DNA from: an uncultured Nitrospiraceae bacterium
GTDB taxonomy: Bacteria > Nitrospirota > Nitrospiria > Nitrospirales > Nitrospiraceae
DNA length: 64,000 nucleotides
Direction of reading: 5' to 3'
NCBI GenBank assembly: GCA_963726635.1
Contig: CAVSCZ010000013.1
Span: 24,677 to 88,676, forward strand
Shown: piece after piece, positions 1 to 50,604 of the stretch
Layout of the letters: each line of letters opens with the position of its first letter
Numbering within the stretch: the stretch's first letter is position 1
Position numbers and translations under genes: made by a program
The notes under the pieces: generated by a model
Seen by the model: the letters and a program-made list of their open reading frames with translations, nothing else
The model's database searches: none
What the model was told of the DNA's origin: nothing

Positions 1-150
1 GAGGGGAAGCGCGACCACCGACTCGACAATGAACTTCCAGCGCCATTTTGAAAAAGTGAGCCAGTAGGCAATAGGCAGTCCGACGACCAGCAAGACACCG
101 GCCGTCAGACTGGCCAATTTGAATGTGACCCAGATCGCGGTCCAATTCAC
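1..150 (-). CDS. modB: molybdate ABC transporter permease ModB, N-terminal fragment (continues past the window start)
   Basis: The minus-strand frame opening at GTG 148-150 reads (M)NWTAIWVTFKLASLTAGVLLVVGLPIAYWLTFSKWRWKFIVESVVALPL to the window edge. This hydrophobic N-terminus is typical of ModB/CysTW-type permeases. The gene lies directly downstream of mop and modA on the same strand. Confidence 0.6.
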   Translation of the reverse strand, partial: MNWTAIWVTFKLASLTAGVLLVVGLPIAYWLTFSKWRWKFIVESVVALPL

Positions 151-234
151 AAGTCCCGCCTCTGTCCCATGATATCTCACTACCGACAACCGGCGCAATG
201 GTAGGAAGCCGCGATCCGGAAAGTCAACGCGACG

Positions 235-442
235 CTACTTGCCGATCATGACTTCCGTGGCTTTCACCGCGACCAGTACGGAGTCGTTGACCTTCAGACC
301 CATGCTCTTGACCGACCCTTCTGTAATCGCCGCCACAAATTCGAGCGTGCCGACTTTCACCGTCACCTCCGCCATAGCCTGTCCGGGCCTCAGTGATTTT
401 GGTGACCGTGCCTTGGAACTGATTCCGCGCGCTAAGTTTCAT
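235..442 (-). pseudogene. mop: Mop/TOBE-domain molybdenum-pterin-binding protein with one frame change
   Basis: ATG 440-442 gives MKLSARNQFQGTVTKITE, a classic Mop start. The homologous continuation GQAMAEVTVKVGTLEFVAAITEGSVKSMGLKVNDSVLVAVKATEVMIGK* is in the next frame (stop 235-237). Deleting one G from the GGG run at 385-387 restores a 68-aa Mop. Confidence 0.75.
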
Positions 443-508
443 GAGCCCTCCTTGGTAAGATGGCTGAATGATTTCAGCCATCGGTTTCGTACAACTTCAA
501 TCCAACCT

Positions 509-1090
509 CTACTTGTCTTGATCGAAGCCGATCATGAATCCTTCCGGACCGGCCACCTCCAGCCGTATCACCTGACGATCCCCTCGCATCACGTCCGGCT
601 TCAACCGAAAACGCACAATCTTCGCGCGATCCTCTTCGCTCAATTGATAGACGGAAGAGGCCCGATAGGCCTGTTCTAATTCGCCCTGCAACGCGACGAC
701 ATTCGATACCAAGAAATTAATCTGGACCCATCCGGTCGGACGAGGCGTCCGGAAGTCCTGTCGGACGACAATCAGCACACCTCGGTAACAATACCCGCGG
801 AGACTGTCGGCGCGAGGATGATCGACCCGTTCAACGACGGGAGCCGACAAGACGGATTCAAAGAACTGTTCGTAAAGCCTGATGTCGGACGTTTCGATCT
901 GGACGCTCTCAAAGGCATCAGACGGACCGGTGGGCGATCGGCAGTCGCGCCCCTGGAGACCAGCGCTCTTGCTCGCATCATCTCCGGTCTCGTGATGTCG
1001 GATCGATGGCTCATCATCCGCCCACACGACCGACACGGCGACCAGGATCACGATTGCGCTTATGAGTCGGACAGATACGTTCACAACCAT
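509..1090 (-). CDS. secreted hypothetical protein (possible VOC/glyoxalase-like fold)
   Basis: 193-aa ORF with an N-terminal hydrophobic leader (LISAIVILVAVSVVWA). It is tightly packed between the lipoprotein gene and mop. The fold guess is weak. Confidence 0.5.
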   Translation of the reverse strand: MVVNVSVRLISAIVILVAVSVVWADDEPSIRHHETGDDASKSAGLQGRDCRSPTGPSDAFESVQIETSDIRLYEQFFESVLSAPVVERVDHPRADSLRGYCYRGVLIVVRQDFRTPRPTGWVQINFLVSNVVALQGELEQAYRASSVYQLSEEDRAKIVRFRLKPDVMRGDRQVIRLEVAGPEGFMIGFDQDK

Positions 1091-1094
1091 CCCC

Positions 1095-1424
1095 TTACTT
1101 ACACCGGAACTGTATCCCCCAGCGACGTCCGGTCACTTCCCCTTCTTGACCTTCCGTACTGGACATACTGCCATAGCCTTGCACCTCTCCCTCTTTGAGG
1201 ACGGTGTAGCCGGACAGACACTTTTTCTCCATGACTTTGAGCGCCTCTCTCCGGTGAGGCGACCCCATCGGGCCGCCCCGGTCTTCTTTGAATAGATAGG
1301 TCACGACTCCTCCTGTCTCGGTTTCATGCGTGAGCAACACCGCCTCGGAGCAGCCGACGCTGGTCACGAGCACAGCCAACCCGATCACCTTCGTCCATTG
1401 CTTAACCGGGTAACGTAAATCCAT
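1095..1424 (-). CDS. small lipoprotein of unknown function
   Basis: 109-aa ORF with lipobox LVTSVGC. Its start overlaps the modA stop by 23 nt. Confidence 0.55.
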   Translation of the reverse strand: MDLRYPVKQWTKVIGLAVLVTSVGCSEAVLLTHETETGGVVTYLFKEDRGGPMGSPHRREALKVMEKKCLSGYTVLKEGEVQGYGSMSSTEGQEGEVTGRRWGIQFRCK

Positions 1425-2185
1425 AGCGCTTCATGATCTCCTGTCCTTGAGGGCCTTTGATGAATTCAAGAAACTGTCTCGCCGCTTCCTGGATTTTTGG
1501 ACTGCTTCAAGATCACGGCGCCCTGTTCCAGCGGTGGATGTGCAATCGCTGGGATCTCCCAGTATGTCCGGCTCGCGTTTGCATCGTCGGCGCAAGCGCC
1601 AGGGACAGCGCGATAATCCCGATGTCGCAGGCGCCGGATTCGATGAATTGCGCCGCTTGCGAGATATTCTCTCCTAAAATGAGCTTGTCTTTGACCTGGT
1701 CATAGACCTTGAAATGTTCCATCGCAGCAACTGCGGCACGTCCATAAGGAGCATGTTTGGGATTGGCGATGGCGATTTTCTTGATCGTCGGTTCACGCAG
1801 AGACCTCCAGCCCCTTGGAGAGATCGAGGTGCGAGCCATTACCGGCCCACAAGACAATCCGCCCGACGGCATAGGGATAGAGCGATCCCGGAACGGCGAG
1901 GCCGGCCTCTTCCAGCTTCCTGGGATAGCCGATGTCGGCTGAAAAGTAGAGATCGAACGGCGCGCCATTTTGAATTTGCGCATAGAAATTGCCCGAGGAT
2001 CCGAGCGTCAGCTTCACATGGTTGCCGGTCGACTTTTCATACTCAGTCACGATTTCTTTGAAGGCAAAATTCAGGTCCGATGCAGCGGCGATTGTAAGTT
2101 CCGCCCCCGCCGCTTCCGCCGAGGCGAAGCAGGCAAGCAAGAGTCCGACGGCTATCAACATCGAGATAACAGACCTCGCAATCAT
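1402..2185 (-). pseudogene. modA: molybdate ABC transporter substrate-binding protein ModA with three frame changes
   Basis: Signal peptide plus ELTIAAASDL...GSSGNFYAQIQNGAPFDLYFSAD (frame of ORF 1793-2185). It continues LREPTIKKIAIANPKHAPYGRAAVAAMEHF...IGIIALSLALAPTM (frame of ORF 1513-1983). It then reads ANASRTYWEIPAIAHPPLEQGAVILKQSKNP and EAARQFLEFIKGPQGQEIMKRYGFTLPG* in two further frames. Shifts lie near 1800, 1581 and 1495. Confidence 0.8.
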
Positions 2186-2260
2186 AACAGCTCCTCTTTA
2201 TTCGTTAGGTGAAAATCTTCCCCGAACTGTACCATGCGAGCCAAGTCCAGATACAAACTG

Positions 2261-4087
2261 TCAGAAGAAGATTTGAAATTGTAGGCGAATGGCGTTCTCG
2301 ATCAGAGTACCCGCATTCGCATCCAATGGCACACATCCTGATGGGAATGTGGCTGGGCATGGAACAGTACTTTGTGACCCTCCCGTACTCGGCAAGGGAT
2401 TGCTTCTCCCGATCGCGAAGCCACCTTGTCCCATGGCAACATTGGAATAGGTAAGCATGATCTGATAGTCATACGTACCGAACGGGTACCAGTTGAGGGA
2501 GACATCTGTTTCCTTGATCAAATCGCCTCCTGAATTTGTATCCGGATCCCACCAGGCATAGCGAGCGGCGACTTCGACCTTGCGGGGAATCAAGTAGTAG
2601 CCGGATTGGACATACCATCCGGTCGAGTTGCCGAGCTGTCCCGGGGCAAACGCGGTGCAAGGGCCGCCCACGCCCGCCGTCTGTAGACAGGGGAGGCCCT
2701 TGTTCTGCCGGGTGATGTTTCTGAACCAATATTCGGCTTGCAAGGAGAAGCCACGATACTTGAAGGCATAATCCAACGCCCACGTTGAAAAGTCGACGAT
2801 ACCCTGTCCCAGGATGCGTCCGTTTCCATAGACAGCAAGGGCGCGTCGAACGGTCAGGTTCGCCAGATCAAGCCCCACAAACGCGTTATCGGTACTGGTA
2901 TTGATCGCCGGATTATAGGCATACCCGCCCCCAACAACCATCTGGGGAGTCTCCGAATAGGCAATATCTCCCTCCCCATAGCCCGCCCGACCCATGATAT
3001 TTGCCTGTAGTCTGGCCACATACATGAGCTGATTGACATTGCCTCGGAAGTTGGCGTTCAGGTTCCGCTGATTTGCGGGACAGTTCGTCGTTGTAGGAAA
3101 CGGCTGGCCTGACGTCTGCCCGCCCGAGCACCCGACAGTCGGCTCTTCGCTCGAAAATTGAGCGAAACGGTTCACGAGGGGGCCCACTCCGTTGAACACG
3201 CCAAAGTAATAATTGATGGGATAGATCTCTTCGTCGTTCATGATGGTGATTCCGACATCGCGACGGTTGATGCCATTCGCCGTGAAGGCGTCCATCACGA
3301 GAGCGCGACCTGCAAACTGCATCGCAGCTGTGGAATTGATCTGCGACCGGTCAAAGTACACTTTAAACTGCCCCAATTGGACGTTTAACCAGTTGATATG
3401 GCTGCTCATGACATAGGCGTCAAGCAAGACTACGGCACCTGGCGCTTGCGCGTTTTCTGCGCTCTCACCCGCAATTTGAAAGTTGTATCTGAGATCCGGG
3501 TTAAAGAGGTGTCCCATGAAATAGAGCCGGGCGGTCCTCAGATTAAAGGATGAAGCTTCATCGATAGAGCGGTTCGCCCGGTAATCGCCGAAGACACCGA
3601 GCAGTTCAGGATAATTCTTGGAATCCCCAGATTCCCGATAGGCGTCATTCCGGTAGCGCTGCGTAAATCGGATTTGCATGCGTCCGCGAATTTTCAACAA
3701 GAAGGCATTGTCATTCATGGAAAAGTTAAAGCCCCGGTCGTACCAGGCCTTAAAGCTCGGCTGGAGCAGGTAGGCCCGCTCTTGCGACTCTCTGACGACC
3801 GCATCGTATTCTTCCTGTGTGATGGTGCCTTGTTTGACAGCACGCTCCAGGAGCAGTTTGGTCGCAGGATCCATGCTTTCTACAAACACATACTTGCCGT
3901 CCTTCTCAATCAACTTTCCGGCCTCAGCCGCAAGGCTGACCGACTGACCGAACCAGCTCCAGCAGAATATTAACAAAGCCACGCTGACAACTCTGCTCTC
4001 CCGCAGTATCAAGATATGAATGAAAGACGATAGCCATATACAGATGCCTTGTCTCCACATGCCTCCGCTCTTCATGTTCTCCCTCAT
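2261..4087 (-). CDS. outer-membrane porin, phosphate-selective porin O/P-like (copy 1)
   Basis: 608-aa ORF with a leader followed by AAEAGKLIEKDGKYVF...GTITQEEYD. The body is rich in Y/G/N/F with a beta-strand-like alternation and ends ...IENAIRLQFQIFF (terminal Phe of OM barrels). It is paralogous to 7524-9141. The exact start is uncertain. Confidence 0.75.
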   Translation of the reverse strand: MRENMKSGGMWRQGICIWLSSFIHILILRESRVVSVALLIFCWSWFGQSVSLAAEAGKLIEKDGKYVFVESMDPATKLLLERAVKQGTITQEEYDAVVRESQERAYLLQPSFKAWYDRGFNFSMNDNAFLLKIRGRMQIRFTQRYRNDAYRESGDSKNYPELLGVFGDYRANRSIDEASSFNLRTARLYFMGHLFNPDLRYNFQIAGESAENAQAPGAVVLLDAYVMSSHINWLNVQLGQFKVYFDRSQINSTAAMQFAGRALVMDAFTANGINRRDVGITIMNDEEIYPINYYFGVFNGVGPLVNRFAQFSSEEPTVGCSGGQTSGQPFPTTTNCPANQRNLNANFRGNVNQLMYVARLQANIMGRAGYGEGDIAYSETPQMVVGGGYAYNPAINTSTDNAFVGLDLANLTVRRALAVYGNGRILGQGIVDFSTWALDYAFKYRGFSLQAEYWFRNITRQNKGLPCLQTAGVGGPCTAFAPGQLGNSTGWYVQSGYYLIPRKVEVAARYAWWDPDTNSGGDLIKETDVSLNWYPFGTYDYQIMLTYSNVAMGQGGFAIGRSNPLPSTGGSQSTVPCPATFPSGCVPLDANAGTLIENAIRLQFQIFF

Positions 4088-4141
4088 TCAGAATTAGATA
4101 TGGCTGAACATCCTTGGACCGTCGCTGCTCGGAAAACCTGA

Positions 4142-4789
4142 CTAGGGCGACGGAATTGTTTTCAGAAACTCCCGAAAGTCCAGCCCTCGCCGGTCGGTCT
4201 TCGGGTCGGTCACATAAAATCGACCAGGCTCGAAGTACAGGAGGTACGTTTGCTCAGGAGTCCAGGGGGTCGGATAGTTGTAGTCGTACACGTCGTAAGT
4301 CCGCACAGGCTGCTGAACATGAAAGTAATCGATGGTCAGATGGAGCAGTTGATCCTGCACGGCGACCCAGCCGCCGATGACATCGCGTCGGTATTTGGGA
4401 TCGATACCGGGGGCAAATAGATCGAAGTAGACCCGCTCTTCGGGCCCAGCTTTTTGCAGCGCATCGGCAAGCTGCGGGGCCAGTACCTGTAATTCGTCTT
4501 CGCGGAAGATCTTATTCGGAGGAGCTTCTTCGGCAAACCAGCGGAGCGGCAGGCGCTGTTGCTCGCGCAGAGAAAAGCCGCGGAGGATGGCCACCACCTG
4601 CTGCGGAGTAATCTGGACCGGATGCGCATATCCTGCCGGCGTGATTTCCCGTTGCAGCATGACGGCCACGCGTCGATCCTCATGCACCACCGTCGTCGTG
4701 TAGGGCATCCGCGCACAACCAAGACCAATCAAAACGAGAACGGCGACCGACATGGCTGCCGACTGTCTCCAAACGTTCACCTGCGACAT
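4142..4789 (-). CDS. lipoprotein of unrecognised family (copy 1 of 3 in the window)
   Basis: Start set at ATG 4787-4789, preceded by GGAGG. Lipobox LIGLGC. It shares ITPQQVVAILRGF, FREDELQVLAPQLADALQKAGPEERVYFDL and LLHLTIDY blocks with 10001-10737 and 50594-51328. Confidence 0.7.
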   Translation of the reverse strand: MSQVNVWRQSAAMSVAVLVLIGLGCARMPYTTTVVHEDRRVAVMLQREITPAGYAHPVQITPQQVVAILRGFSLREQQRLPLRWFAEEAPPNKIFREDELQVLAPQLADALQKAGPEERVYFDLFAPGIDPKYRRDVIGGWVAVQDQLLHLTIDYFHVQQPVRTYDVYDYNYPTPWTPEQTYLLYFEPGRFYVTDPKTDRRGLDFREFLKTIPSP

Positions 4790-4878
4790 GACGAACCTCC
4801 TACCTGCTTGTAACTCCACAATACATATACTTATGACTGGTATACTTGACACATTGGCCAAAAAAATATTTCGCCTCG

Positions 4879-5712
4879 TTACTTGCGTTGCCCGGGCAGT
4901 CCATAACCCAATCCCTTCAGGATGCTTCGGGCTTCTGGAGACTGGGAAAACGCGAGGAATTCTTCGCACAGCGGGCGATCGGGACAGTACCGTTCCATCG
5001 CCAGAGAATGGACGATCGGACGGATAGCCTGCTCCGGTGCGACAGCTACGACACGAACTCGCTCCCGTTTGTCATAGGCGTCCGGACCGAAGATAATGCC
5101 GACATCTGCCTGTCCGTTGAGCAGGTGATCCAATACACCGCGAGCATCCGTCGCCACATCCAACCGTCCTTTCATGGCCTCTGCGATTCCCAAGGCCTTC
5201 AAGAGTTCGTTGGTCTTTTGCCCGACCACGGTCAGCATCGGATCTGCGACGGCCACTCGTATCCGAGTATCCCGGGCAAGCGCTTCAAACGACGCCGGCG
5301 CATCGACGAGGGATTCAGGCACGACCAGCACCAATGAGACGGTGGCATAGGGCCGGCGCGTCTGTGGCAGCACATAATATTTCTGTTCCAAGCGAGTGAT
5401 CAGCTCATCGCCGCCCGGTGCAATAATGTGAATGGGGCCGGAGCCAATGAAGTATTGTCCCGTGGGATTATTCTCCATCGCGGCGATCGTGCGACGCAGA
5501 TCCAGACCGGAATCGAAATAGAGTCGTACCTTCACATGCTGGTGGGACGCCTCAAACGCTCGACTCAAGGCTTCGAGTGGAGTGGCCAGACTGGGCGAGG
5601 CCGCGATCACGAGCGGCTCGCTCGCTGCGGCGGAACCGTTTCCTCCGGCGACCAGAACGGTGACGATCAGCGCGGTCATTCTCACGAAATTCTGCATGGG
5701 TGTCCTGAGCAT
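4879..5712 (-). CDS. periplasmic substrate-binding protein, divergent ModA-like (PBP type 2)
   Basis: 277-aa ORF with a signal peptide (MTALIVTVLVAGG...AAAS). The pattern VKVRLYFDSG, RIRVAVADP, ADVGIIFGPDA resembles molybdate/tungstate-type binders. Confidence 0.7.
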   Translation of the reverse strand: MLRTPMQNFVRMTALIVTVLVAGGNGSAAASEPLVIAASPSLATPLEALSRAFEASHQHVKVRLYFDSGLDLRRTIAAMENNPTGQYFIGSGPIHIIAPGGDELITRLEQKYYVLPQTRRPYATVSLVLVVPESLVDAPASFEALARDTRIRVAVADPMLTVVGQKTNELLKALGIAEAMKGRLDVATDARGVLDHLLNGQADVGIIFGPDAYDKRERVRVVAVAPEQAIRPIVHSLAMERYCPDRPLCEEFLAFSQSPEARSILKGLGYGLPGQRK

Positions 5713-5737
5713 CGGACCTCCGTCGCTCCCGGCTCAT

Positions 5738-6922
5738 CTACAATGTTTGCAGCTTGCCGGTGTCGCTCGTGTCATAGCCGCCGAGCGCCTCGACCTCAGA
5801 TCTGAACTGGCGGCTGACGATGGTATCCATGAAGGGAGCCAGGCTGGGATGGTCAGTCAGATACGCAGTCGGAACAACCAAATCGTACCGGGCTTCCTGT
5901 AGCGGGAGAAAATCGAGCCCGAGGAGCCGTGCAACTGACCGGACGCCGACCCCCACATCGGCTTGGCCGGTCGCGACGAATCTCGCGACCTCCAGATGGG
6001 AACCAACCATTCGCTCGTACCCACTGAGTTGGTGCGCCGAGATGCCGGCTTCGCTGAGCTTCTGATCGAGCAAGCTCCGCGCCCCTGCTCCCTGTTCCCG
6101 ATTCACCAGGACAATCCCCTTCCGCGCCAGATCCGCTACCGAGCGGATGTGTTTGGGGTTACCTGGTTGCACCATCAAGCCTTCTTCCCAGCTCGCGAAC
6201 GTGACGACCGTGAACCCGCTCCCCGCGAGATGTTTCCTGAGATAGGGCAGATTGGATTCCCCTGATTTCGGATCCACAACGTGCAATCCAGCGATGTGAA
6301 CCTCACCTCGCTTCAACGCCTCGATCGCCGCCGCACTGCCTAAGGTCCATCCTACGACAGCGGATGTATCACGCCGCCGCCGCAGATATTCGCCGGCCAA
6401 AAAAATGGCCGGATCACAGCCGGCGACTGCGATTTCCTGTTCAATCACCCGTCGATCTCTCAAGAGCTGCACGCGAACCCGAGCCGGCAACTTCCCCGTT
6501 CGTCCCGATCCACTCACGAGCCCCAGGATCAATCCATCAGCCGGTACGGTGTAATTCAATACATCGCCTAGGCCGGCAACCGGACGAACGATAATGCGCC
6601 CCCCTACTTTGACCACTTTCACGCGGACTCTTGACCAATCAGTTCTGCTCTCGGACTGTTCAGTGAGAAGATCCCCCTCAATCACGTCACCACGTGTCAC
6701 GAGGCTGAACAAATCTTCGACAGAACAATCGAGCGCTCCGGCAAGGCGAAGCGCGACCGCGGTTGTGGGGAGATATTGATTGGCTTCGATCGCACAGACC
6801 GCCTGCCTGGTGATGCCGGCCATATCGGCCAGCGAACTTTGAGAAAGGCTCTTCGCCAACCTCAGACTACGGAGGCGGTTTTCTATATTGCTGGCGGGCT
6901 CGGCTCGACTATTCTGACTCAT
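5738..6922 (-). CDS. XRE-type HTH regulator fused to a periplasmic-binding-protein-like domain (COG1910-type putative molybdate-responsive regulator)
   Basis: HTH segment LRSLRLAKSLSQSSLADMAGITRQAVCAIEANQYLPTTAVALRLAGAL is followed by a ~300-aa PBP-like domain (AVAGCDPAIFLA, GEVHIAGLHV, ADVGVGVRSVA). It is the first gene of the minus-strand operon. An alternative start is at 6946. Confidence 0.75.
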   Translation of the reverse strand: MSQNSRAEPASNIENRLRSLRLAKSLSQSSLADMAGITRQAVCAIEANQYLPTTAVALRLAGALDCSVEDLFSLVTRGDVIEGDLLTEQSESRTDWSRVRVKVVKVGGRIIVRPVAGLGDVLNYTVPADGLILGLVSGSGRTGKLPARVRVQLLRDRRVIEQEIAVAGCDPAIFLAGEYLRRRRDTSAVVGWTLGSAAAIEALKRGEVHIAGLHVVDPKSGESNLPYLRKHLAGSGFTVVTFASWEEGLMVQPGNPKHIRSVADLARKGIVLVNREQGAGARSLLDQKLSEAGISAHQLSGYERMVGSHLEVARFVATGQADVGVGVRSVARLLGLDFLPLQEARYDLVVPTAYLTDHPSLAPFMDTIVSRQFRSEVEALGGYDTSDTGKLQTL

Positions 6923-7094
6923 GATGGCTCGATAAATAGCAAGCATACTTTACAGGTGTCAAGCAAAAAAGTAGCTGCGCCATTGCTCAGAGGATCAGAT
7001 TGTTTTGCGATCAGATATTGAATAACGCATACTCGAATCGTATAGCATTGAAAACAAATGTAAATTATTGATAATTCTCTGTTTTAAGAATTTG

Positions 7095-7124
7095 TTGACA
7101 AACTGTGTCAATTTAGTTTATTAA
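7095..7124 (+). promoter_or_regulatory. candidate sigma-70 promoter with overlapping inverted repeat (TTGACA-N5-TGTCAA)
   Basis: TTGACA at 7095-7100, an 18-nt spacer, then TATTAA at 7119-7124. The -35 hexamer is the left arm of the perfect inverted repeat TTGACAAACTGTGTCAA (7095-7111). It lies in the AT-rich divergent intergenic region, 66 nt upstream of the yezD-like start. Confidence 0.35.
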
Positions 7125-7189
7125 ATTAATCACGATACTTGATCGGATATATGTACATTGATTGGCTTGACGAAAAGGAACCTCTGAAC

Positions 7190-7414
7190 ATGAGCACCCA
7201 ACAGCGAGCGATTCAGAGCCAACAGCACAACCAGGACATCGCGCACGAGATTCTGCTCGCCATCAAGGACCTGCGCTTCGGATCGATGGAAGTCGTCATT
7301 CACGACTCAAAAGTGGTCCAGATCGAACGCAAGGAAAAGATCCGCTTCGATACCCTCAGTCACAACCACCACAGTGAGGGATCTATGACGATCCAGCGTT
7401 GTTGTCGCAGCTAA
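7190..7414 (+). CDS. YezD-family small protein (DUF2292)
   Basis: MSTQQRAIQ...LRFGSMEVVIHDSKVVQIERKEKIRF matches the DUF2292 signature (G-S-v-E-i-v-I-H-D-g-k-V-v-q-I-E-r-k-E-K-i-R). An AAGGAA RBS precedes ATG 7190. Confidence 0.75.
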   Translation: MSTQQRAIQSQQHNQDIAHEILLAIKDLRFGSMEVVIHDSKVVQIERKEKIRFDTLSHNHHSEGSMTIQRCCRS

Positions 7415-7523
7415 CAGTCGTCGCCGTCCAGACCGCTGGATGCCTGTGCCTTCCCGTTCCAACACATCAATCTCAGGACTGACCGAATCACCGGAAGTTC
7501 CGACAATACGAAGGGGAAACGAC

Positions 7524-9141
7524 ATGAGATTGTCCGGTTTGTTTGTTCGCACCATTCTGGGTGTCGCCTTGCTGGCCAGCGCGTCACCCGCACTGGCCGT
7601 CGAGGAAGGCCAACTGGTGAAGAAAGAAGGCAAGTGGGAGTACTATTCCGGCGAAGACCCGGGCTTGAAGTATCTCTTACCTGAAAGGAATGATCACCCA
7701 AGAGGAGTACGACAAAGGCCTCAAGGTGATCGAGACGAAAGAACGAGTCTCCAAGCCGAACTTCAATATCGACGTCAACAACGGCTTGAATATCCGCGTC
7801 GGAGAAAAGTTTTTCCTGAAACTCCGGCTGCTCACCCAGGTGCGTTACACCTACAGCACCTACAATTCCGCCTGGGGCACCATCGGAGACTCAAGAAATC
7901 CTGAGATCTTGGGAGGCCAGGTAGAATTTCGAGCCGTCAAACACCAGAGCGACTCAAGTCAATTCACCGTTCCCCGCGCGCGCCTCCAATTCATGGGGTA
8001 TGCCTTCGACCCGGACTTCCGCTACAACTTCTCCTGGCAAATGGATCAAACATCCTGGAATCAGGAGGGAGGCAGCGGAACAGCCAAACTCGTCGACGCA
8101 TACATCGCCTCCTGGCATATCCCGCTGGCAACGGTCCAGGTCGGTCAACAGCGGGTCTGGTTCAATCGTGCCCTCATTAGCTCGATTGCCACCTCAACCT
8201 TCTCGGACAATATGATCGTTCAGAACGCGTTTGCCGCCAACCTGGTCAGCAGTCGTGACATCGGGATCGCCATCCTGAGTGATGAGGATCAATACAAATT
8301 CAACTATGCCATCGGCATCTGGAACGGAACCGGGACCAACCTCACCCGAGAAGGCACCTCCGTCAGCCAGTCACTCCCCAACAACACCAGCATTCCCGCC
8401 GCCCAACGGCGAACGTACAACTATGACACCCGCTTCGGAACCAGCGAAATGATGTACACGGCTCGCCTGCTCTATAAAATCTCAGGCAATCCAGGATATG
8501 GGCAGGGAGACATCCTGAACTCACGCGTCCCCCAAGTGGCAATTGGAGCCGGGTATGCGTACGATCCGGCTCAAAACTACCTCAGCTCGATCAGGTCAGA
8601 TATTGTGGATCGTGCTTATCGTCAGAGCGTGACGAAGGCAGGCAACGGAAGGCTTCTGGGCGGAGGGATCTACGATTTCCAAACTACCGAAGTGGACTTG
8701 ATCGCGAAGTACCAGGGATGGTCCCTCCAAGCAGAAGGGTATTACCGGTTTCAGAACGTGCGAAACAGTGATTCGGGAACCATTCCGTTTGACCCTACTA
8801 CCGCTGTGCCCTTAGGACCGCCGGTGGAGCTTGGCGACGCCTATGGCTGGTACGCGCAGGTCGGGAAATACATCATTCCCCGAAAACTCGAACTCGCTGT
8901 CCGCTATGGGTTTATGGATCCTTCGACCAAGCAGACACATGATCTGACCAAGGAGTTCGGCGCCGCCATCAACTACAGCTTCGACGGCACCTACAACAAC
9001 CGGCTCGTCGTCGATTATTCCAATATCCACATGGGAAGCGGCGGGCGCGCACCGGACAGATTTCCATGGGAGAGCCTGCCAGGATTTGGCAGCGATCTCA
9101 TCGAGAACCGGATCAATGTGCAGTATCAGTTCTATTTCTAG
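7524..9141 (+). pseudogene. outer-membrane porin, porin O/P-like (copy 2) with one frame change
   Basis: ATG 7524 gives the signal peptide MRLSGLFVRTILGVALLASASPALA and EEGQLVKKEGKWEYYSGEDPGLKYLLPE. The continuation GMITQEEYDKGLKVIE...ENRINVQYQFYF* is in the +1 frame (ORF 7690-9141). Removing one A from the AAA run at 7684-7686 joins them. Confidence 0.8.
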
Positions 9142-9177
9142 GACGACACGAATTATTTAACCGTCAGGAGAACAATC

Positions 9178-10004
9178 ATGAAACACCCTCGCCAATGGCT
9201 AGGAATTTTGCTCTTTTTCAGTCTGCGTGACAGCACCGCTCGGGATCGCACCGCCCGTGCAGGCGCAACCGGAAACACTCACCGTCGCAGCGGCCAACAG
9301 CCTCAAGGATGCGCTCCGGAAAGTCTTGCCGCTCTTCGAGGCGCAGCACCGTGAGATCAACGTGCGGGTCATCTACGGACCCTCTCAAACACTCCGCAAT
9401 CAGATTGAACAGGGCGCGCCGGTGGATATCTTCCTGCCGTCGCTGTTCGAGGAAATTGAACAGCTGGAAAAGAAAGGGCTCGTGATACAAGGCACCAAGC
9501 GCGTCTATGCCGGCACGTCGCTGGTCTTGATCACCAGCACCACGCTCCCCGCCCCCATTGCCTCCATCCAAGATCTGCGGACAGTCCCGGTCCGACGGAT
9601 TGCCGTCGGCGACCCCAAGTCTTCGTCGGTGGGGAAAGTGGCGGCGCAGTTTCTCAAATACAACAAGCTCGACTCCCAACTGAAGTCTCAATTACGTCTT
9701 CGGGGAGCATTCCCGTGCCGTGCTCGATCTGGTCGCCAATGGCGAAGCTGAGGTCGGCGTCGTGTATCGAACCGATGCCTTGTCGAATGCAAAGGTCCGT
9801 ATTCTTGATACAGCCCCAGCCGACTCCCATACTCCCGTCCGCTACGGGGTCGCCGCAGTATGGACTTCAAAAAACATTTCGGGTGCCGGTGACTTCATCG
9901 AGTTCTTGTTGACGCCCGAGACCCAAATCCTCTTGCAGAAATATGGATTCGATCGCGTGCCATCCGAAGTCGGTTCTGCCCAACAGCAGGAGGTCAAACC
10001 ATGA
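9178..10004 (+). pseudogene. ModA-family periplasmic substrate-binding protein (copy 2) with two frame changes
   Basis: ATG 9178 (RBS CAGGAG) gives MKHPRQWLGILLF. Removing one T from the T5 run at 9214-9218 yields SVCVTAPLGIAPPVQAQPETLTVAAANSLKDAL...YGPSQTLRNQIEQGAPVDIFLPS (ModA motif). A second shift near 9690-9720 leads to HSRAVLDLVANGEAEVGVVYRTDA...LLQKYGFDRV. Confidence 0.8.
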
Positions 10005-10737
10005 ACGGCATCAGGCATTCACGAACATCCGCATGATCTGTGGTCAGTTCTGGCGCTGTTCATCCTCATGGGTCTTACAGTGATTGCCGGTTGCGCGAGT
10101 CAACCAGTCTCACCACAGAAGACGATCTATGAATCGGGGCTCAACACGGTTCGCTTGGAGGAAGATCCCGACTCAATATCCAACACACACCCGACTGTGT
10201 TGACACCGACAGAAGTTGGGACCTTACTCCGAGGCGTCCGGGCATGGGAAAGACGGAACGTGATCCATCGCTTGTTCAGCGGTCAAGCGGACCGAACCAG
10301 AGCCTTCCGGGATGAGGAGATCGTCGTGCTCGCGCCGGCTCTCTCAAAGGCTCTGGCGCAGGCCACCCCGACCAGAACGCGTCTACTTCCACCTGAGTCA
10401 TGCTACGGATCAGGGGGAAGAAGAAACCTCCAATGGGTGGCTGTCGGTGCGAGGCCCCATTCTGCACCTCACCCTCAGCGAGGTACATGATCGACACAGC
10501 CCCGGACCCGACATCGGTAAATATGACCGTCAAATGCCGAACGTGCCGGAAGCTTCGGCGGAATTCGATGTGACCTTCGAGCCTGAGGAGTATCTGGCCA
10601 TGGTTCGATCCGGAGGGTCGCTGTTCGCACCCGATCAGCGGGAAGAACTCCAGATTCGGTATCGAGAAGCACTCGCTACCCTGCCCATCTATCCAGGTCT
10701 GGAGCAACGCCAAAAGATGACTGCGCCACAGCCTTGA
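10001..10737 (+). pseudogene. lipoprotein of unrecognised family (copy 2) with two frame changes
   Basis: ATG 10001 overlaps the upstream stop (ATGA). The lipoprotein leader LWSVLALFILMGLTVIAGC follows after a shift near 10030. A second shift near 10375 precedes ERVYFHLSH...GPILHLTLSEV. It is paralogous to 4142-4789. Confidence 0.7.
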
Positions 10738-10884
10738 GTGGCATGCACCCTGCGAGTGGCAGCAGGATTTTTCTGCTGCCACTCAACTGATCCTCTATGG
10801 AAAGCCCCATGACCATTCTCAAGGACGGTGGCTCGTGGACCATCCCATGCTGGCACGCAGTTTCTCGCTGTGGTACGGTACTCC

Positions 10885-12495
10885 ATGCGCGGCGCTCCCA
10901 CCGGTTGGTTTCGCCATCTGACGATCGGGAAAAAGTTTCTCCTGTCGTTCAGCCTCATTGTCACAGTCCTCATCTTCAGCCTGGCGGCCATCCTGGTCTA
11001 TCTCACCCGCGTCAACAGTTACGTCGATCGGCATCAGCGGATCACCGTCCCCGCCGTCGTGACGGCCGCCACGACGCAGCAGACGTTCTTCCACATGCTG
11101 GAGCAGGTCCACCATCTGGTTGAACATCAACCCCCTGCGGAACAGGTCGCCACGCTCGCCCGTCTTGAACAGATGCTGTCGCAGGCGACCACATCGATCG
11201 ACACCTATCGCACCAGTCATGCAGCCAGAACGCATCCCATCCTCTTCGGCATGTTGACGCAACACCAGCGGACGGACCTGGTAGACCTCGAAGACCGGAC
11301 GATGGACGACATCACCGCGGCCCTCACGCGCCTGTCAGAGTACCAACGGGCCATTGCGACGCAGCTCCCGCGCGCGACGCCGGACAAGAATCTGCTCTCC
11401 AACACCGCGCTCCAGTACGAACGCGCGATTCGTTCCCTCGAAACGGCCACCACGACCTTGATCGACGTTCACCGAAAGATCGACGGGGAAATGAAGCTCG
11501 AGGGCGATCGCCTCGTCAAGGAAGCGCGCCTCATCGTCCTGGTCCTGGTCTCAGTGTTGGGACTGCTGATCGTATTCACCTATCTGACTATGCGACGCTC
11601 CATCGCCCAGCCATTGCGCCGTCTCGCGGCTACGGCCGACCGTGTGGCCCATCACGACCTGACCGCGCAATTCGAGTCCTGGCCGAGCCGGGACGAAGTC
11701 GGCACGCTCGCGACCTCGCTATCCTCGATGGTGACGAACCTGCGCGAACGCACGGCGGCACTCACCCATAAAACCAGAGAACTCGAAGCCTTCACCTATT
11801 CGATTGCCCATGATTTGAAGGGGCCGTTGCGGGAAATTGAAGGTTTCTCCTCGCTGCTGGAGAAACAATTCGTAGACCAGGGCGACCCTCACGTCACGCA
11901 TTACATCGACATCATCAGGAAATCCTCGTTACGCCTCACGCATATGATCGATGCCCTGCTCAAGTATTCACGACTGGAACAGCAGGACCTCCCGCGTACC
12001 CGCTTCAACGTGTTGGAGATGATCAGCAGCCTGCTCGTCGACCGGCAGAGCCAGCTCACCGGCATCACACCTCAGATCACGGTCAATCTCCCCTTCGCCG
12101 ATCTGTACGGCGAACCGGTCAGCATCCGTCAGGCCTTGGTCAATCTGCTCGATAATGCCATCAAGTTCTCCCGCCATTCCCCGGCTCCGACTATCAACAT
12201 CGGGGGACTACAGGCGCCGACCGAACGTATCCTCTGGATACAGGACAACGGCATCGGCTTCGACGCCGACCAGAAGGAGAAGCTCTTCGGTCTCTTCGAG
12301 CGGCTGCACAATGCCCAGGAGTACGAAGGCACCGGCGTCGGCCTGGCCATCGTGAAGATGGTCGCGGACAAACACGGGGGCCGCGTCTGGGCAGAATCGT
12401 CGCCCGGCAAAGGCAGCACATTTTTTCTGGCGTTCCCGAATGGCCAAGAAGCTGTCAGCCTTCAGCTCTCAGCTTCGACCCTGAGACAAGACTGA
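10885..12495 (+). CDS. sensor histidine kinase (TM sensor, HAMP, HisKA, HATPase)
   Basis: HAMP segment (PLRRLAATADRVAHHDLTAQF...TLATSLSSMVTNLRER), H-box FTYSIAHDLKGPLREI, and N/G boxes LVNLLDNAIKFS, DNGIGFD, GTGVGLAIVK. An upstream ATG at 10828 is also possible. Confidence 0.85.
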   Translation: MRGAPTGWFRHLTIGKKFLLSFSLIVTVLIFSLAAILVYLTRVNSYVDRHQRITVPAVVTAATTQQTFFHMLEQVHHLVEHQPPAEQVATLARLEQMLSQATTSIDTYRTSHAARTHPILFGMLTQHQRTDLVDLEDRTMDDITAALTRLSEYQRAIATQLPRATPDKNLLSNTALQYERAIRSLETATTTLIDVHRKIDGEMKLEGDRLVKEARLIVLVLVSVLGLLIVFTYLTMRRSIAQPLRRLAATADRVAHHDLTAQFESWPSRDEVGTLATSLSSMVTNLRERTAALTHKTRELEAFTYSIAHDLKGPLREIEGFSSLLEKQFVDQGDPHVTHYIDIIRKSSLRLTHMIDALLKYSRLEQQDLPRTRFNVLEMISSLLVDRQSQLTGITPQITVNLPFADLYGEPVSIRQALVNLLDNAIKFSRHSPAPTINIGGLQAPTERILWIQDNGIGFDADQKEKLFGLFERLHNAQEYEGTGVGLAIVKMVADKHGGRVWAESSPGKGSTFFLAFPNGQEAVSLQLSASTLRQD

Positions 12496-12496
12496 A

Positions 12497-12527
12497 CACT
12501 GATGGCTGAAAGCTGATTGCTGAGAGC
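12497..12527. repeat. family A motif (GCTGATGGCTGAAAGCTGA type), short copy
   Basis: CACTGATGGCTGAAAGCTGATTGCTGAGAGC lies in the 39-nt spacer between the kinase and NtrC-like genes. Confidence 0.6.
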
Positions 12528-12534
12528 TAAACCC

Positions 12535-13878
12535 ATGCGCACACTCATCATCGACGACGAAGAATACGTTCGCTTGGTACTGGAGCAGGCACTCCGCGAG
12601 GAGGGCTGTGAGGTGACCGCCGTCACACATGGGGCAGCAGGCATCGAGGCGCTGCAGACCAGCACCTTCGAATGCGTCATCACCGATCTCCGTATGCCCG
12701 GCCTCGACGGTCGAGCCGTCTTGAAGTGGGTCCGCGAGCATCAACCCGATGTGGATGTCCTCATGCTGACCGGCCATGGCGACGTCAAAGACGCGGTCGA
12801 GGCGATCAAACAGGGGGCGTGGGATTTCTTAGTCAAGGATACGCCCTTCGAGGCCGCAGCGGTCAAAGCCGCATTGGCCAGGCTGAACACCGTGCGCGCC
12901 CTCCGCAAAGAGAACCTGGCGGCCCGGTATGGAGGCTTCACGCGCGATGTCATCATCGAAGGACCAAGCCAGGCCTGGCAGAAGCTCAAGATCCAGATTG
13001 CTCAGGTCGCACCATCTAACGCGGCTGTGCTCATTCAGGGAGAAACCGGCTCGGGCAAAGAAATCGCCGCGCGGCTGCTCCATGACCTCAGCCGGCGAAC
13101 CAGCGGACCGTTTCTCGCCGTGAACTGCGGAGCCGTGAGCCGGGAACTGTTGGAGAGCGAACTCTTCGGCCACGAAAAAGGCTCGTTTACCGGCGCGACC
13201 GCCGCGAAACCGGGCCTCATCGCCGCAGCCGAAGGGGGCACGCTCTTTCTGGATGAACTGGGCGAGATGCCGGGCCCGATGCAGGTGAGTCTGTTGCGCT
13301 TCCTGGATCGTGGCGAATACCGCCCCGTCGGCAGCACGCGTACGCTCCAGGCCAACGTCCGTGTTGTCGGAGCCACGAACCAGGACATCCAGGAACTCGT
13401 TCACCAAGGCCGCTTCCGGGACGACCTGCTCTACCGCATCAACACCGTCACCCTGCGCGTGCCTCCGCTCCGCGAGCGGAAGGAGGATCTTCCAAAACTT
13501 GCAGAGCACATCCTCTCGACCCTGCGCATTCCCGGAACCACGAAACGAACCCTCTCACTTGAGGCCGTGCAGGCACTTGCAGGCCACAGTTGGCCCGGTA
13601 ACGTACGTGAGCTGCGCAATGTTCTTGAGGGAATTGTGCTGATGGGCAATGGAACGGGTCCGATCAGTCGAGAAGAAGTCCTCGCGCTGTTGCCGAAAAC
13701 CCGGAGCACGTTTCAGACGGGAGATCACACGCACCTGTCCCTGGAGGAGATCGAACGCCTCCACGTCGAGCGCGTCCTCGACGCCAGCGGTGGCAACAAA
13801 ACCCAGGCGGCCAAGACCCTCCAGATCGATTACAAGACCCTGCTCACCAAGTTGAAAAAATACGACATGGGCAGCTAG
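12535..13878 (+). CDS. sigma-54-dependent response regulator (NtrC family)
   Basis: REC domain (LIIDDEEYVR...DLRMPGLDG), AAA+ sigma-54 interaction domain (GETGSGKE, ESELFGHEKGSFTGA), and C-terminal Fis-type HTH (GNKTQAAKTLQIDYKTLLTKLKKY). Confidence 0.9.
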   Translation: MRTLIIDDEEYVRLVLEQALREEGCEVTAVTHGAAGIEALQTSTFECVITDLRMPGLDGRAVLKWVREHQPDVDVLMLTGHGDVKDAVEAIKQGAWDFLVKDTPFEAAAVKAALARLNTVRALRKENLAARYGGFTRDVIIEGPSQAWQKLKIQIAQVAPSNAAVLIQGETGSGKEIAARLLHDLSRRTSGPFLAVNCGAVSRELLESELFGHEKGSFTGATAAKPGLIAAAEGGTLFLDELGEMPGPMQVSLLRFLDRGEYRPVGSTRTLQANVRVVGATNQDIQELVHQGRFRDDLLYRINTVTLRVPPLRERKEDLPKLAEHILSTLRIPGTTKRTLSLEAVQALAGHSWPGNVRELRNVLEGIVLMGNGTGPISREEVLALLPKTRSTFQTGDHTHLSLEEIERLHVERVLDASGGNKTQAAKTLQIDYKTLLTKLKKYDMGS

Positions 13879-14077
13879 CCCGATCAATCGATACGACATT
13901 CGATTGCCTCTCTCGATCACGGTTCCCCTCTCCTGGACCTACTTTACTTCTCATTGAGCTAGGGATATTCTCTCATGCCTGTTCGACCCTCTGTCCCGTA
14001 CAAGCTTGGAGCTACAGCCGGATGGGAGTCATGCCTGCCAACACCAACCTGCAACACATCTTCGGAAGGAGTCTGCC

Positions 14078-14881
14078 ATGTCACGACGTCTGTGCGCGCT
14101 GATCGTGCTTGCCATTGTCTTCGGTTCGACACCACTCTGGGCAGCCCAACTCAGCCGACCCCAGGTGGAATATTCGGCCGATTCAGTGATGCAAAATGAG
14201 GAAGGGACGATAGAACAGCATGTCTTCGTCACGCCTGCCAAGGAGCGCCGGGAAATGCTGACCGGTGCCGGCGATGGGTCGGTCCAAATCTTTCGTTACG
14301 ACAGCAAAGTGATGTGGATGCTGATGCCGTCAGAGAAAATGTACATGGAGAACTCGTTGGCGAAGGCCGCTGCCAAAGACGTCTCGCAGTGGGATGTTGA
14401 GGAGACCGTGATGGGCGAGGAGGTGTTGAACGACATGAAGGTCACCAAGTACAAGACCATTGCGACCAGCACCGACGGAAAGAAATATGGCGGCTTCTCC
14501 TGGCGGACGAAGGAGGGGATCTCCATCAAGTCCGATCTGCTGTACAAGGAAGGGAACGAGAAGAAACGGATGATGACAGAACTCAAGAACGTGAAGATCG
14601 GCAGGCAGGACTCCAAATTATTCGAAATTCCTGAAGGATACACGAAATTCGACATGGCCGGGATGATGGGCGGCATGATGGGCGGCCAGATGGGCCGTGA
14701 GGGCATGGGGCAACCGCCTATGGACAGACCCAGCTCAAGAAATAGACCCACGGTGCACCAGCCAGGCGGCACCGTGCCTCAGGAGAATGTTCCGGTAGCA
14801 CCGGAGCCGGAACCGCCTGCCGACGATCGATCCGATGTGCAGAAGGCCGGCGACATGATGAAGAAACTGTTCGGACGATAG
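14078..14881 (+). CDS. secreted protein with Met/Gly-rich C-terminal tail, family uncertain
   Basis: GGAAGGAG RBS and signal peptide MSRRLCALIVLAIVFGSTPLWAAQ. Low-complexity tail MAGMMGGMMGGQMGREGMG. A DUF4412-like assignment is only a guess. Confidence 0.6.
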   Translation: MSRRLCALIVLAIVFGSTPLWAAQLSRPQVEYSADSVMQNEEGTIEQHVFVTPAKERREMLTGAGDGSVQIFRYDSKVMWMLMPSEKMYMENSLAKAAAKDVSQWDVEETVMGEEVLNDMKVTKYKTIATSTDGKKYGGFSWRTKEGISIKSDLLYKEGNEKKRMMTELKNVKIGRQDSKLFEIPEGYTKFDMAGMMGGMMGGQMGREGMGQPPMDRPSSRNRPTVHQPGGTVPQENVPVAPEPEPPADDRSDVQKAGDMMKKLFGR

Positions 14882-14884
14882 GAC

Positions 14885-15725
14885 ATGCAGATGAGCGCAG
14901 TGCGGCGCGGAGGGTTGCTCGTCGTCGGCATGGCCGTGTCGGTCATGCTGTGCGCCGTCGCACGTCCGCGCCGAGGACCTTCCGGCCAGGCCGTCGATCA
15001 AGGCATCGGCATTTTATCTGATTGAGCTCAAGTCCGGACGGGTCCTCTTGGAAAAGGATGCCACACGTCGGCTTCCGCCGGCCAGCCTCACGAAAGTGAT
15101 GACGGCGTTGGTCGCAATGGAAGTCGCCTCTCCGGAGCAAGTCGTGCAAGTCGATCGCCGTGCGCTCGTGCATCGGTCGTCCCTCAAACTCCGCGCCGGC
15201 GAGCAATTTCTCTTGCGCGATCTGCTCACAGCCATGCTGGTGACGAGCGCGAACGACGCCTGCGAGGCGATCGCCTGGCATGTGGGGGGCGACGCCGACC
15301 GGTTCGTCACGATCATGAACGAGCGGGCCCGAACGTTGGGATTGAAGAATACCCATTTCGCCAACGCCTGCGGATTCGATGCCCCCGGCCACTACTCGAC
15401 CGCGGCGGATTTGGCGAAGTTGACGGAGCAGGCGCTGCAAGTGCCTGCCATTTCCATGATGGTTCGGACGATCACGCGGGACATCACCAGCGTGGACGGC
15501 GCACGACAGGTCCTTCTCCGTAGCACCAACGAGCTACTCCTCGATCCCGACGTCAATGGCGTGAAAACCGGATATACGAGCAAGGCCGGACTCTGTCTGA
15601 TCGCGAGCATGTTCAAGGACGGCCATCGGTTACTTTTGGTGGGGTTGAATGTCAGGGATCGCTGGGAACAGGCCACCAGCCTGCTGCGGTACGGGCAGGC
15701 GGTATTGCGAGTCGGGAACGAGTAG
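14885..15725 (+). pseudogene. D-alanyl-D-alanine carboxypeptidase (S11, PBP5-like) with one frame change
   Basis: Contains the SxxK (PASLTKVMT), SxN (TSAND) and KTG (VKTGYT) motifs. The leader MQMSAVRRGGLLVVGMAVSVMLCAVA from ATG 14885 is one frame off from HVRAEDLPARPSIKASAFYLIELKSG... The shift is near 14955. Confidence 0.8.
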
Positions 15726-47819: not shown

Positions 47820-47823
47820 CAGC

Positions 47824-49053: not shown

Positions 49054-49091
49054 CTCATGAACACCTGACGATGCGACCATAAGGAGGTACC

Positions 49092-50475: not shown

Positions 50476-50604
50476 CTGCGGGACGCTCAAAAAGTCCGTC
50501 CAGCAAGGCCGCAACCGATGAAAGCGCCGGAGGCGTGGCCTCTGGGCTACGTTGAGAATGCTTTCGAGAAAAGAACGAAGCTGGAGGACTTCTTCAGCGT
50601 CCCG
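50476..50604. repeat. family B palindromic intergenic element, copy 1 (129 bp)
   Basis: CTGCGGGACGCTCAAAAAGTCCGTCCAGCAAGGCCGCA...GGGCTACGTTGAGAATGCTTTCGAG...CTGGAGGACTTCTTCAGCGTCCCG. The ~25-nt ends are inverted repeats of each other. It lies between the tolC-like stop and the lipoprotein stop. Confidence 0.8.

Follow-up and report, generated by a model that had tools for sequence, protein, structure and literature searches.

Paralogous porin, ModA-like binder and lipoprotein cassettes in Nitrospira, beside molybdate-transport and sulfur-scavenging genes, as candidate outer-membrane front ends for oxyanion uptake

The stretch of DNA analysed here, 64,000 nucleotides of an uncultured Nitrospiraceae bacterium (contig CAVSCZ010000013.1, positions 24,677 to 88,676; hereafter the window), encodes on each strand a porin, a binding protein (binder) of the ModA family and a homologous lipoprotein. 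The minus-strand gene set is referred to as copy or cassette 1 and the plus-strand set of the same window as copy or cassette 2, and the proteins are numbered accordingly (Table 1). Genes were called from a listing of open reading frames (ORFs), Pfam and NCBIfam scans, and tblastn searches with the proteins of an intact relative, L004; other relatives and their loci are designated in the same way. These three sources confirm the gene order and coordinates of the original prediction for this locus, as well as its observation of a gene set on either strand, but frameshifts in porin2, binder2, lipoprotein2, modA and mop had been overlooked. Identity between the copies amounts to 37% for the porins (E=3e-110), 31% for the lipoproteins (E=7e-26) and 26% for the binders (E=2e-24), and, judged by these values, the two gene sets are paralogous well beyond chance. 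The shared motifs pointed out earlier are likewise found, namely the ITQEEYD block and the C-terminal LIEN..Q.Q.(F/Y)F of the porins, and FR.(D/E)E...LAP.L..AL..A.P.ERVYF and LHLT of the lipoproteins.

Conservation of the lipoprotein neighbourhood with porin and binder, the check that the original prediction had named, proved essentially invariant for cassette 1. A scan with lipoprotein1, with one genome per GTDB species, returned 105 relatives. The best 80 of these, all of them Nitrospira, Nitrospiraceae or Nitrospirota records and among them the chromosome of Candidatus Nitrospira defluvii, entered a tblastn census of the locus in which denominators comprise only loci with a sufficiently long contig. 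Binder1 lies directly upstream of lipoprotein1 in 78/78 loci and porin1 directly downstream in 75/75, while the regulator is present in all 67 loci and modA in all 60. The census also recovered the ~100-amino-acid lipoprotein (48 of 52 loci), mop (37 of 52) and the 193-amino-acid secreted protein (15 of 52), as well as modB together with modC in 51 of 52. The earlier remark that the window holds no ATPase reflects an edge effect, modC following modB in the relatives. Both secreted proteins encoded between modA and mop are without a family, and Met and Cys together make up about 6% of the ~100-amino-acid lipoprotein.

The same association emerges from the porin side. Among 48 loci from JGI metagenomes, a lipoprotein and a binder stand beside every porin with enough flanking sequence, except in L116, where the lipoprotein is present and no binder was detected upstream of it. 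The divergent lineage L089, whose lipoprotein is 34% identical, has kept the order binder, lipoprotein, porin, mop and modABC, with the regulator adjoining. In the complete genome of Candidatus Nitrospira bockiana (OZ224215.1; L001, 1-2339), about 6 kb separate the cassette-1/mod locus from an nxrA/nxrB-like pair, consisting of a molybdopterin subunit of 1145 amino acids and a 4Fe-4S subunit.

Comparison of close relatives gives substance to the earlier description of the cassette as grafted, in that a block of four genes (regulator, binder, lipoprotein and porin) has been swapped as a unit between conserved flanks. Three loci, L119, L120 and L122, carry a cassette 1 termed here type B, whose binder, lipoprotein and porin share only 23-31%, 35-38% and 50-55% amino-acid identity, respectively, with those of the window, whereas the stretch from modA to modC in the same loci matches the L004 lineage at 84-95% identity. 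At the nucleotide level, L119 and L098 are 91% identical upstream and 85% identical downstream of the block, with only short patches of 69-77% identity across regulator, binder, lipoprotein and porin; the flanks of L119 and L120 are 85-91% nucleotide-identical to those of L098 and L093. Because the flanks are near-identical while the block between them diverges, regulator, binder, lipoprotein and porin appear to have been exchanged or diversified as a unit. Two very different block types are thus found between near-identical flanks, one set of loci comprising L119, L120, L122, L089 and L007 and the other L098 and L093. They could have arisen through recombination, or through selection for diversity in a pore exposed at the surface, perhaps one that serves as a phage receptor. 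The joint change of the four genes is indirect evidence that the three products and the regulator work as a set.

Table 1. Genes and other features at the start of the window, with the evidence for each.
Feature	Position	Strand	Evidence
modB, N-terminus of ABC (ATP-binding cassette) permease, cut by the window edge	1-150	-	tblastn with L004 ModB residues 1-44, 100% identity
mop, TOBE-type molybdate-binding protein, 1 frameshift at ~385-393	238-442	-	two tblastn pieces in different frames; six-frame reading
193-amino-acid secreted protein "s188", no family	509-1090	-	ORF; no Pfam; 15/52 relatives
~100-amino-acid Cys-rich lipoprotein "s97" (109-amino-acid ORF), lipobox VGC	1095-1424	-	no Pfam; 48/52 relatives
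Canonical modA, ~3 frameshifts	~1405-2185	-	SBP_bac_11 split across two ORFs; tblastn
porin1, Porin_O_P beta-barrel, N-terminal ITQEEYD extension (SHOCT-like)	2261-4087	-	PF07396, E=2.8e-14
lipoprotein1, lipobox LGC, Ala at +2, ~6-residue tether	4142-4789	-	no Pfam/NCBIfam family
binder1, predicted soluble periplasmic ModA-family protein	4879-5712	-	SBP_bac_11, E=7e-34
Regulator, HTH_3 (Xre) and cytoplasmic PBP_like	5738-6946	-	PF12727, 214.9 bits, E=7e-64; PF01381; start codon may be 6922
TTGTCAACA / TGTTGACAA element, divergent promoter region	7093-7101	.	enrichment in relatives; promoter-like scan
DUF2292/OscA-like small protein heading copy 2	7190-7414	+	PF10055, E=4.7e-15
porin2, porin1 paralog, no Cys, 1 frameshift at ~7679	7524-9141	+	tblastn in two frames
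binder2, ModA-family, 2 frameshifts at ~9220 and ~9691	9178-10004	+	PDB 4kd5, E=8.5e-38; no mature Met/Cys
lipoprotein2, lipoprotein1 paralog, 2 frameshifts at ~10035 and ~10372	10001-10737	+	tblastn in two frames
Terminator-like hairpin after lipoprotein2	10749-10766	+	consensus scan only
HAMP histidine kinase	10828-12495	+	Pfam; downstream of copy 2
Sigma-54-dependent response regulator	12517-13878	+	Pfam; downstream of copy 2

Cassette 2 lies divergently upstream of cassette 1 in 28 of 50 loci, and in 28 of 29 its three genes adjoin one another. The order in 29 species is DUF2292, porin2, binder2, lipoprotein2; after lipoprotein2 come SsuABC-like genes (10 loci, and one more with ssuC only), Sbp (9 loci, usually preceded by DUF2325) or nothing. 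The SsuA match to TIGR01728 reaches 165.5 bits at a cut-off of 163.5. The DUF2292 protein scores 55.3 bits against PF10055 (cut-off 22) and 57.1 bits (E=1.3e-15) against the NCBIfam OscA model NF033785, the latter below the equivalog cut-off of 85. No sulfate permease was found in this window. Judged by this gene content, cassette 2 is a separate divergent operon in a sulfur-scavenging neighbourhood and not part of the mod system. The original prediction had placed it on the mod locus as a second module; this part of it has to be given up, as copy 2 travels with OscA-like, Sbp or SsuABC-like genes and with a two-component system.

The composition of the encoded proteins points the same way. 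Proteins produced in sulfur starvation are known to be economical with sulfur amino acids. Met+Cys contents were taken as medians over orthologs after removal of the signal peptide. For binder2 the value is 0.00%, with 20 of 29 orthologs devoid of any Met or Cys, and for porin2, which has no Cys, it is 1.17%; the sulfur-uptake comparators Sbp and SsuA show 0.64% and 1.03%. Contrasting values were obtained for ModA (2.22%), the histidine kinase (2.29%), binder1 (2.83%) and porin1 (3.07%). Cassette 2 would accordingly be made under sulfur starvation, because its proteins are almost without sulfur amino acids. The binder2 stop and the lipoprotein2 start overlap by 4 nucleotides in 29 of 29 species, which suggests coupled translation of the two.

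The two-component genes that follow cassette 2 bring in a different explanation, in which the cassettes serve signalling and not transport. The binder would be a periplasmic co-sensor and the lipoprotein a membrane-proximal adaptor, together reporting a porin-admitted solute to a sensor kinase; precedents for such co-sensors are TorT with TorS and the chitin-binding protein with ChiS. The histidine kinase gene, which stands after copy 2 either directly or past the sulfur-uptake genes, is found in 20 of 29 species loci, and the sigma-54-dependent response regulator gene is also present in 12 of those. Further points in favour of signalling are a distant lineage that has a PAS kinase and a GerE-type regulator after porin, binder and lipoprotein but lacks an ABC importer in the vicinity, a third clade of the lipoprotein family whose member in Nitrospira Kam-Ns4a (L008) immediately precedes genes for a PilJ/HAMP/GAF kinase and a sigma-54 regulator and then nxrAB, and the lack of a full ModA ligand set in binder1 and in the binder of L091. 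However, cassette 1 has no kinase, its regulator is a cytoplasmic one-component protein, and it lies directly upstream of modABC on the same strand. In 9 of the 29 species loci no kinase was detected in the fetched flank of cassette 2. Because a sigma-54 promoter was found upstream of cassette 2 in 0 of 51 loci and a terminator-like hairpin stands between lipoprotein2 and the kinase gene, the adjoining two-component system is not an evident driver of cassette 2. Sensing alone, moreover, would need no dedicated porin, and signalling as the main role of the cassettes seems quite unlikely.

Some details of this region may be recorded separately. A GG-N10-GC match resembling a sigma-54 site, at 10739, was rejected as a candidate, such matches occurring at chance frequency in the window. 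At 10739-10766, in the gap between lipoprotein2 and the kinase gene, a -24/-12-like TGGCAT-N5-CCTGC overlaps the terminator-like hairpin, and such matches too are found at chance frequency. Past the response regulator, 14006-15725 (+) encodes a DUF4412 protein and then a D-Ala-D-Ala carboxypeptidase ORF that matches its profile from position 28 and may be truncated.

All three binders exceed the cut-off of 62.5 bits of the NCBIfam modA model TIGR01256, in line with the earlier description of three ModA-type proteins: binder1 scores 76.5 bits, and the intact orthologs through which binder2 and modA were scored reach 157.3 and 210.8 bits. Only the canonical modA adjoins modBC; binder1 is encoded three genes upstream on the same strand, binder2 is without a ModBC-type partner, and neither binder1 nor binder2 has a permease of its own in the window. 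To compare the ligand pockets, 163 orthologs were aligned to Escherichia coli ModA, whose ligand residues are S12, S39, A125, V152 and Y170; the E. coli sequence used has the length of PDB 1AMF and the ligand residues at these positions. Canonical ModA proteins have the Tyr-125 type of pocket in 65 of 65 cases, as do those of Azotobacter vinelandii and Pseudomonas aeruginosa. Binder2 retains S12, S39 and Y170 in 29 of 29, an E. coli-type pocket. S12 is kept in 61 of 69 binder1 orthologs, and in 53 of the 69 a serine is shifted to position 38. The ModA of P. aeruginosa attains nanomolar affinity with only four ligand residues, sulfate and phosphate being excluded (PMC9171197). Since four residues suffice there, binder1 would not be disqualified as an oxyanion binder.

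Porin1 scores 53.6 bits against PF07396, well over the gathering score of 20.9, its orthologs carry PF07396 in precomputed annotation, and public databases describe them as "OprO/OprP family" or "putative anion-selective porin". Porin2 alone gave no PF07396 hit in the Pfam scan; it is 37-42% identical to porin1, and the porin of L091, encoded in the same gene order as cassette 2, carries PF07396. Both porins show the hallmarks of outer-membrane beta-barrels, a hydrophobic N-terminal leader and an aromatic residue at the C-terminus (...LQFQIFF in porin1 and ...VQYQFYF in porin2). A weak match connects the family to ExtI, a PF07396 relative from a selenite/tellurite operon, and in the Geobacter literature PF07396 porins are mentioned only under Fur control. 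By analogy with the better-known members of the family, anion selectivity of these porins is a reasonable expectation. The ITQEEYD block of the N-terminal extension, which would be periplasmic, was considered as a bona fide SHOCT domain and rejected, its matches being sub-threshold only (E=0.007-0.047).

The lipoproteins are the least familiar component. Neither lipoprotein1 nor lipoprotein2 matches a Pfam or NCBIfam family, and no Pfam domain was found on the core of 51 diverse family members, a few of which carry SHOCT, peptidoglycan-binding or coiled-coil tails. A profile search against 1.84 billion representative proteins retrieved 767 clusters (at 50% identity) at E<=1e-3 and 229 at E<=1e-10. 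All named members belong to Nitrospira or Nitrospirales, and a search started from distant members brought only another Nitrospira clade. The AlphaFold2 model has a pLDDT of 89.8 and a pTM of 0.82, and shows an alpha/beta fold in which the lipidated Cys is followed after 6-7 residues by the first strand; because of this short distance, the domain would lie close to the membrane. With Ala at +2, the protein would be sorted to the outer membrane by the E. coli rule. Foldseek comparison of the model found nothing significant in the PDB (best E=0.1, TM<=0.35) or in BFVD (best E=0.08). Hotdog-fold thioesterases provided the top PDB hits, but at a TM of only 0.24-0.35, and this likeness was set aside. 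The earlier description of an uncharacterised lipoprotein is therefore upheld at the level of families as well as of predicted structure.

Only two clades of this lipoprotein family are tied to porins. A third paralog in the window, at 50594-51328 (-), is 31% identical to both lipoprotein1 and lipoprotein2 and lies downstream of genes for a cyclophilin-type peptidyl-prolyl isomerase and a BNR/Ycf48-like propeller (51347-51856 (-) and 51877-52959 (-)), convergent with a TolC-like gene. The latter belongs to a group at 44976-50462 (+), where a 943-amino-acid ORF precedes genes for an HlyD-type membrane-fusion protein and the TolC-like outer-membrane factor, probably an efflux system. The lipoprotein could accordingly be a general envelope protein, for example a factor in barrel assembly or maintenance, with only the porin and the binder functionally coupled. 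The size of the family, the paralogs in unrelated contexts (beside the cyclophilin, or with the added tails mentioned above) and the conserved residues, which across the family are mostly hydrophobic, would suit such a role. It is nevertheless unlikely, given that each duplicated cassette retained a lipoprotein paralog of its own, that type-B cassettes replace the lipoprotein along with binder and porin, and that the lipoprotein2 gene overlaps the binder2 gene in 29 of 29 species.

The predicted regulator, described earlier as a helix-turn-helix (HTH) protein fused to a periplasmic-binding-protein domain, consists according to Pfam of an Xre-type HTH_3 domain and a PBP_like domain, PF12727, and has no Mop/TOBE domain. 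Because the Mop domain is missing, it is, by domain content, not a ModE. A tungstate-responsive family of Desulfovibrio, TunR, presumably uses PF12727 as well; the literature search found nothing on TunR. PF12727 also occurs fused to MoeA, the enzyme that inserts Mo or W (PMC10102598), and a match to NCBIfam PRK14498 links the PF12727 domain of the regulator to this MoeA fusion. A function of the regulator as an oxyanion sensor, perhaps for molybdate or tungstate, would fit this domain content. The 9-mer TTGTCAACA was found 43 times in 1.22 Mb of sequence from relatives, and 36 of these occurrences immediately precede the regulator gene. The 64-kb window has a single TTGTCAACA/TGTTGACAA element, at 7093 between the divergently transcribed genes, with TTGACA in its plus strand and TTGTCA in its minus strand. 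It could act as an operator or as a -35 region common to both directions. No molybdenum cofactor (Moco) riboswitch or other Rfam family was found in 1-14000.

The frameshifts require separate consideration. At least 8, and probably 9, single-base frameshifts are spread across porin2 (1), binder2 (2), lipoprotein2 (2), modA (about 3) and mop (1), while porin1, lipoprotein1, binder1, the regulator, the two small ORFs, the histidine kinase and the response regulator (8.7 kb of coding DNA) are free of them. With uniform placement, our own arithmetic gives p ~4e-5 for all 9 events falling by chance within 4.2 kb of 12.9 kb of coding DNA. Whole-window frameshift detectors (GC3; codon usage) are too noisy or insensitive to show clustering elsewhere. 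The restriction to these genes would suit a reading, limited to this genome, in which modA, mop and cassette 2 have truly, and recently, become pseudogenes and binder1 is the sole ModA-type protein for ModBC; if the frameshifts were real, binder1 could even replace ModA at ModBC. Such a reading is nonetheless distinctly improbable. The affected genes show no other decay and no in-frame stops besides those that the shifts cause. In L004 (~83% nucleotide identity) all of these genes are intact, and the frameshifted genes are as close to L004 as their intact neighbours, at 73-92% amino-acid identity. The three junctions inspected resemble one-base insertions at short repeats, typical of consensus errors, and split genes also occur in other loci of the set that come from long-read metagenome-assembled genomes (e.g., L009, L022 and L061). 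As divergence from L004 is no greater in the broken genes than in their intact neighbours, the frameshifts are either assembly or consensus errors or very recent inactivation.

Taken together, these observations are best explained if each cassette is a portable front end, at the outer membrane, of an oxyanion uptake system, cassette 1 serving molybdate and cassette 2 a substrate needed under sulfur starvation, an explanation whose probability may be put at about one half. The pore would admit the anion, the binder would capture it just inside, creating a sink, and would then pass it to an inner-membrane importer, while the lipoprotein, anchored near the membrane, would hold the binder at the pore or gate the pore. 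In this way ModABC would receive molybdate, or a close group-6 oxyanion, from cassette 1. Gene content, paralogy, conservation, block exchange, family membership, pocket residues and composition bias come directly from the data, whereas the substrates, the way in which they flow and a physical association of the proteins are inferred. Nitrite oxidoreductase is the molybdoenzyme on which the energy metabolism of Nitrospira depends, and a supply of molybdate through cassette 1 would fit a metabolism built on it. A bolder version, tentative and somewhat unlikely, is that the three proteins form a physical machine, in which the new-fold lipoprotein docks the ModA-like binder on the periplasmic face of an anion pore, with a twin for a sulfur oxyanion and with block exchange that includes the sensor-regulator. 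If true, this would be the first described molybdate-specific outer-membrane uptake device.

Several points weigh against oxyanion uptake by these cassettes. The pocket of binder1 is degraded, Phe replacing Tyr170 in 52 of 69 orthologs, and the type-B binder loses S12 as well; with such a pocket, binder1 may not bind molybdate in the manner of ModA. Of the oxyanion-pocket residues whose inspection was proposed earlier, S12, S39 and Y170 are kept in binder2, and those of binder1 are partly degraded. Binder2 presents the opposite puzzle, a molybdate-type pocket amid sulfur genes, where ModA-type pockets exclude sulfate in P. aeruginosa (PMC9171197). As for the porins, a profile of 26 of them found no match at E<=1 among all PDB sequences, OprP and OprO included, and the AlphaFold2 model of porin1, built from a shallow alignment of 26 sequences (73-89% identity, plus one paralog), has a mean pLDDT of only 35. 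Their designation as OprO/P-type in the original prediction stands for porin1 as far as the Porin_O_P threshold is concerned, but does not extend to similarity with the OprP and OprO sequences in the PDB. PF07396 relatives have, moreover, been proposed to serve ferrous iron (PMC545781). The lipoprotein, proposed earlier as partner of porin and binder, has an essentially invariant neighbourhood beside them but belongs to a family that is not exclusive to it: further paralogs, distant ones among them, occur in contexts away from porins and binders, including the one at 50594-51328, and judged by these contexts the lipoprotein domain is not specific to transport. A last point is the frameshifts that modA, mop and all three genes of cassette 2 bear in this window.

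The passage of molybdate across the outer membrane is usually ascribed to general porins, and a dedicated outer-membrane route for molybdate would be new. In soils, waters and wastewater plants, nitrite is oxidised mainly by Nitrospira. As these bacteria need large amounts of a molybdenum enzyme in order to grow, scavenging of molybdate at the cell surface could set the competitiveness of Nitrospira at nanomolar Mo. The reuse of one cassette design beside sulfur-scavenging genes suggests a general, modular answer to the problem of capturing oxyanions across two membranes, and so far the cassettes appear to be confined to Nitrospirales. The lipoproteins form a large family, so far known from Nitrospirales alone, and their confidently predicted fold has no counterpart among solved structures, which makes them a defined target for structural biology.

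Among known systems, OprP/OprO with PstS of P. aeruginosa combines a PF07396 channel, produced when the anion is scarce, with a periplasmic oxyanion binder and an ABC importer; it is a phosphate-starvation system. OprP and OprO are trimeric 16-strand barrels in which an arginine ladder and a lysine cluster give selectivity for anions (phosphate). The cassettes described here likewise pair a channel of the PF07396 family, with porin1 passing the Pfam threshold, with a periplasmic binder of oxyanion type. In contrast to OprP and OprO, the Nitrospira porins are 540-610 amino acids long, have the N-terminal ITQEEYD extension and show no detectable similarity to solved chains; unlike in the OprP/PstS system, the cassette binder is of the ModA type, an extra orphan binder stands beside the ModA of the importer, and a dedicated lipoprotein is always present. 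The mal regulon of E. coli (lamB-malM and malE/malFGK) and cymA/cymE of Klebsiella resemble the cassettes in having the gene of a substrate-specific porin inside an ABC-importer cluster, and in the former the periplasmic MalM, of unknown role, is co-transcribed with the porin. Families and substrates differ, however, and the mal and cym systems, which serve sugars, are without a lipoprotein and a second binding protein.

Similarity to ModABC/ModE/Mop is evident in the canonical modA, mop and modB of this locus, in modC of the relatives and in the ModA family membership of all three binders. ModE is composed of an N-terminal winged HTH and C-terminal tandem Mop/TOBE domains, whereas the regulator here unites an Xre HTH with PF12727, and no Moco riboswitch accompanies the genes. 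In P. aeruginosa, a ModA secreted by the type VI secretion system works with the outer-membrane protein IcmP in molybdate acquisition (PMC8602904), another instance of a ModA-type protein with an outer-membrane partner. Unlike in the Nitrospira cassettes, that ModA is exported by the type VI system and IcmP is metalloproteinase-like, not a porin; the partners are non-homologous and no lipoprotein is involved. Cassette 2 shares with the Sbp/CysP, SsuABC and OscA systems an OscA-like opening gene, Sbp- or SsuABC-like genes that follow in other loci, and a sulfur-poor binder2 and porin2. It differs from Sbp systems in its ModA-type binder, in an OscA match below the equivalog cut-off (57 versus 85 bits) and in having no sulfate permease in the window.

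A search of the literature available found no paper that describes a triad of porin, binder and lipoprotein, in agreement with the original prediction, which knew of none, and a search for Nitrospira, molybdate and porin returned nothing. Specific porins inside ABC-importer clusters, exemplified by OprP/PstS and LamB/MalE/MalM, are already known; what the Nitrospira cassettes add to them is an invariable lipoprotein of a predicted new fold, an extra orphan ModA-like binder, a built-in regulator and the exchange of these genes as a block.

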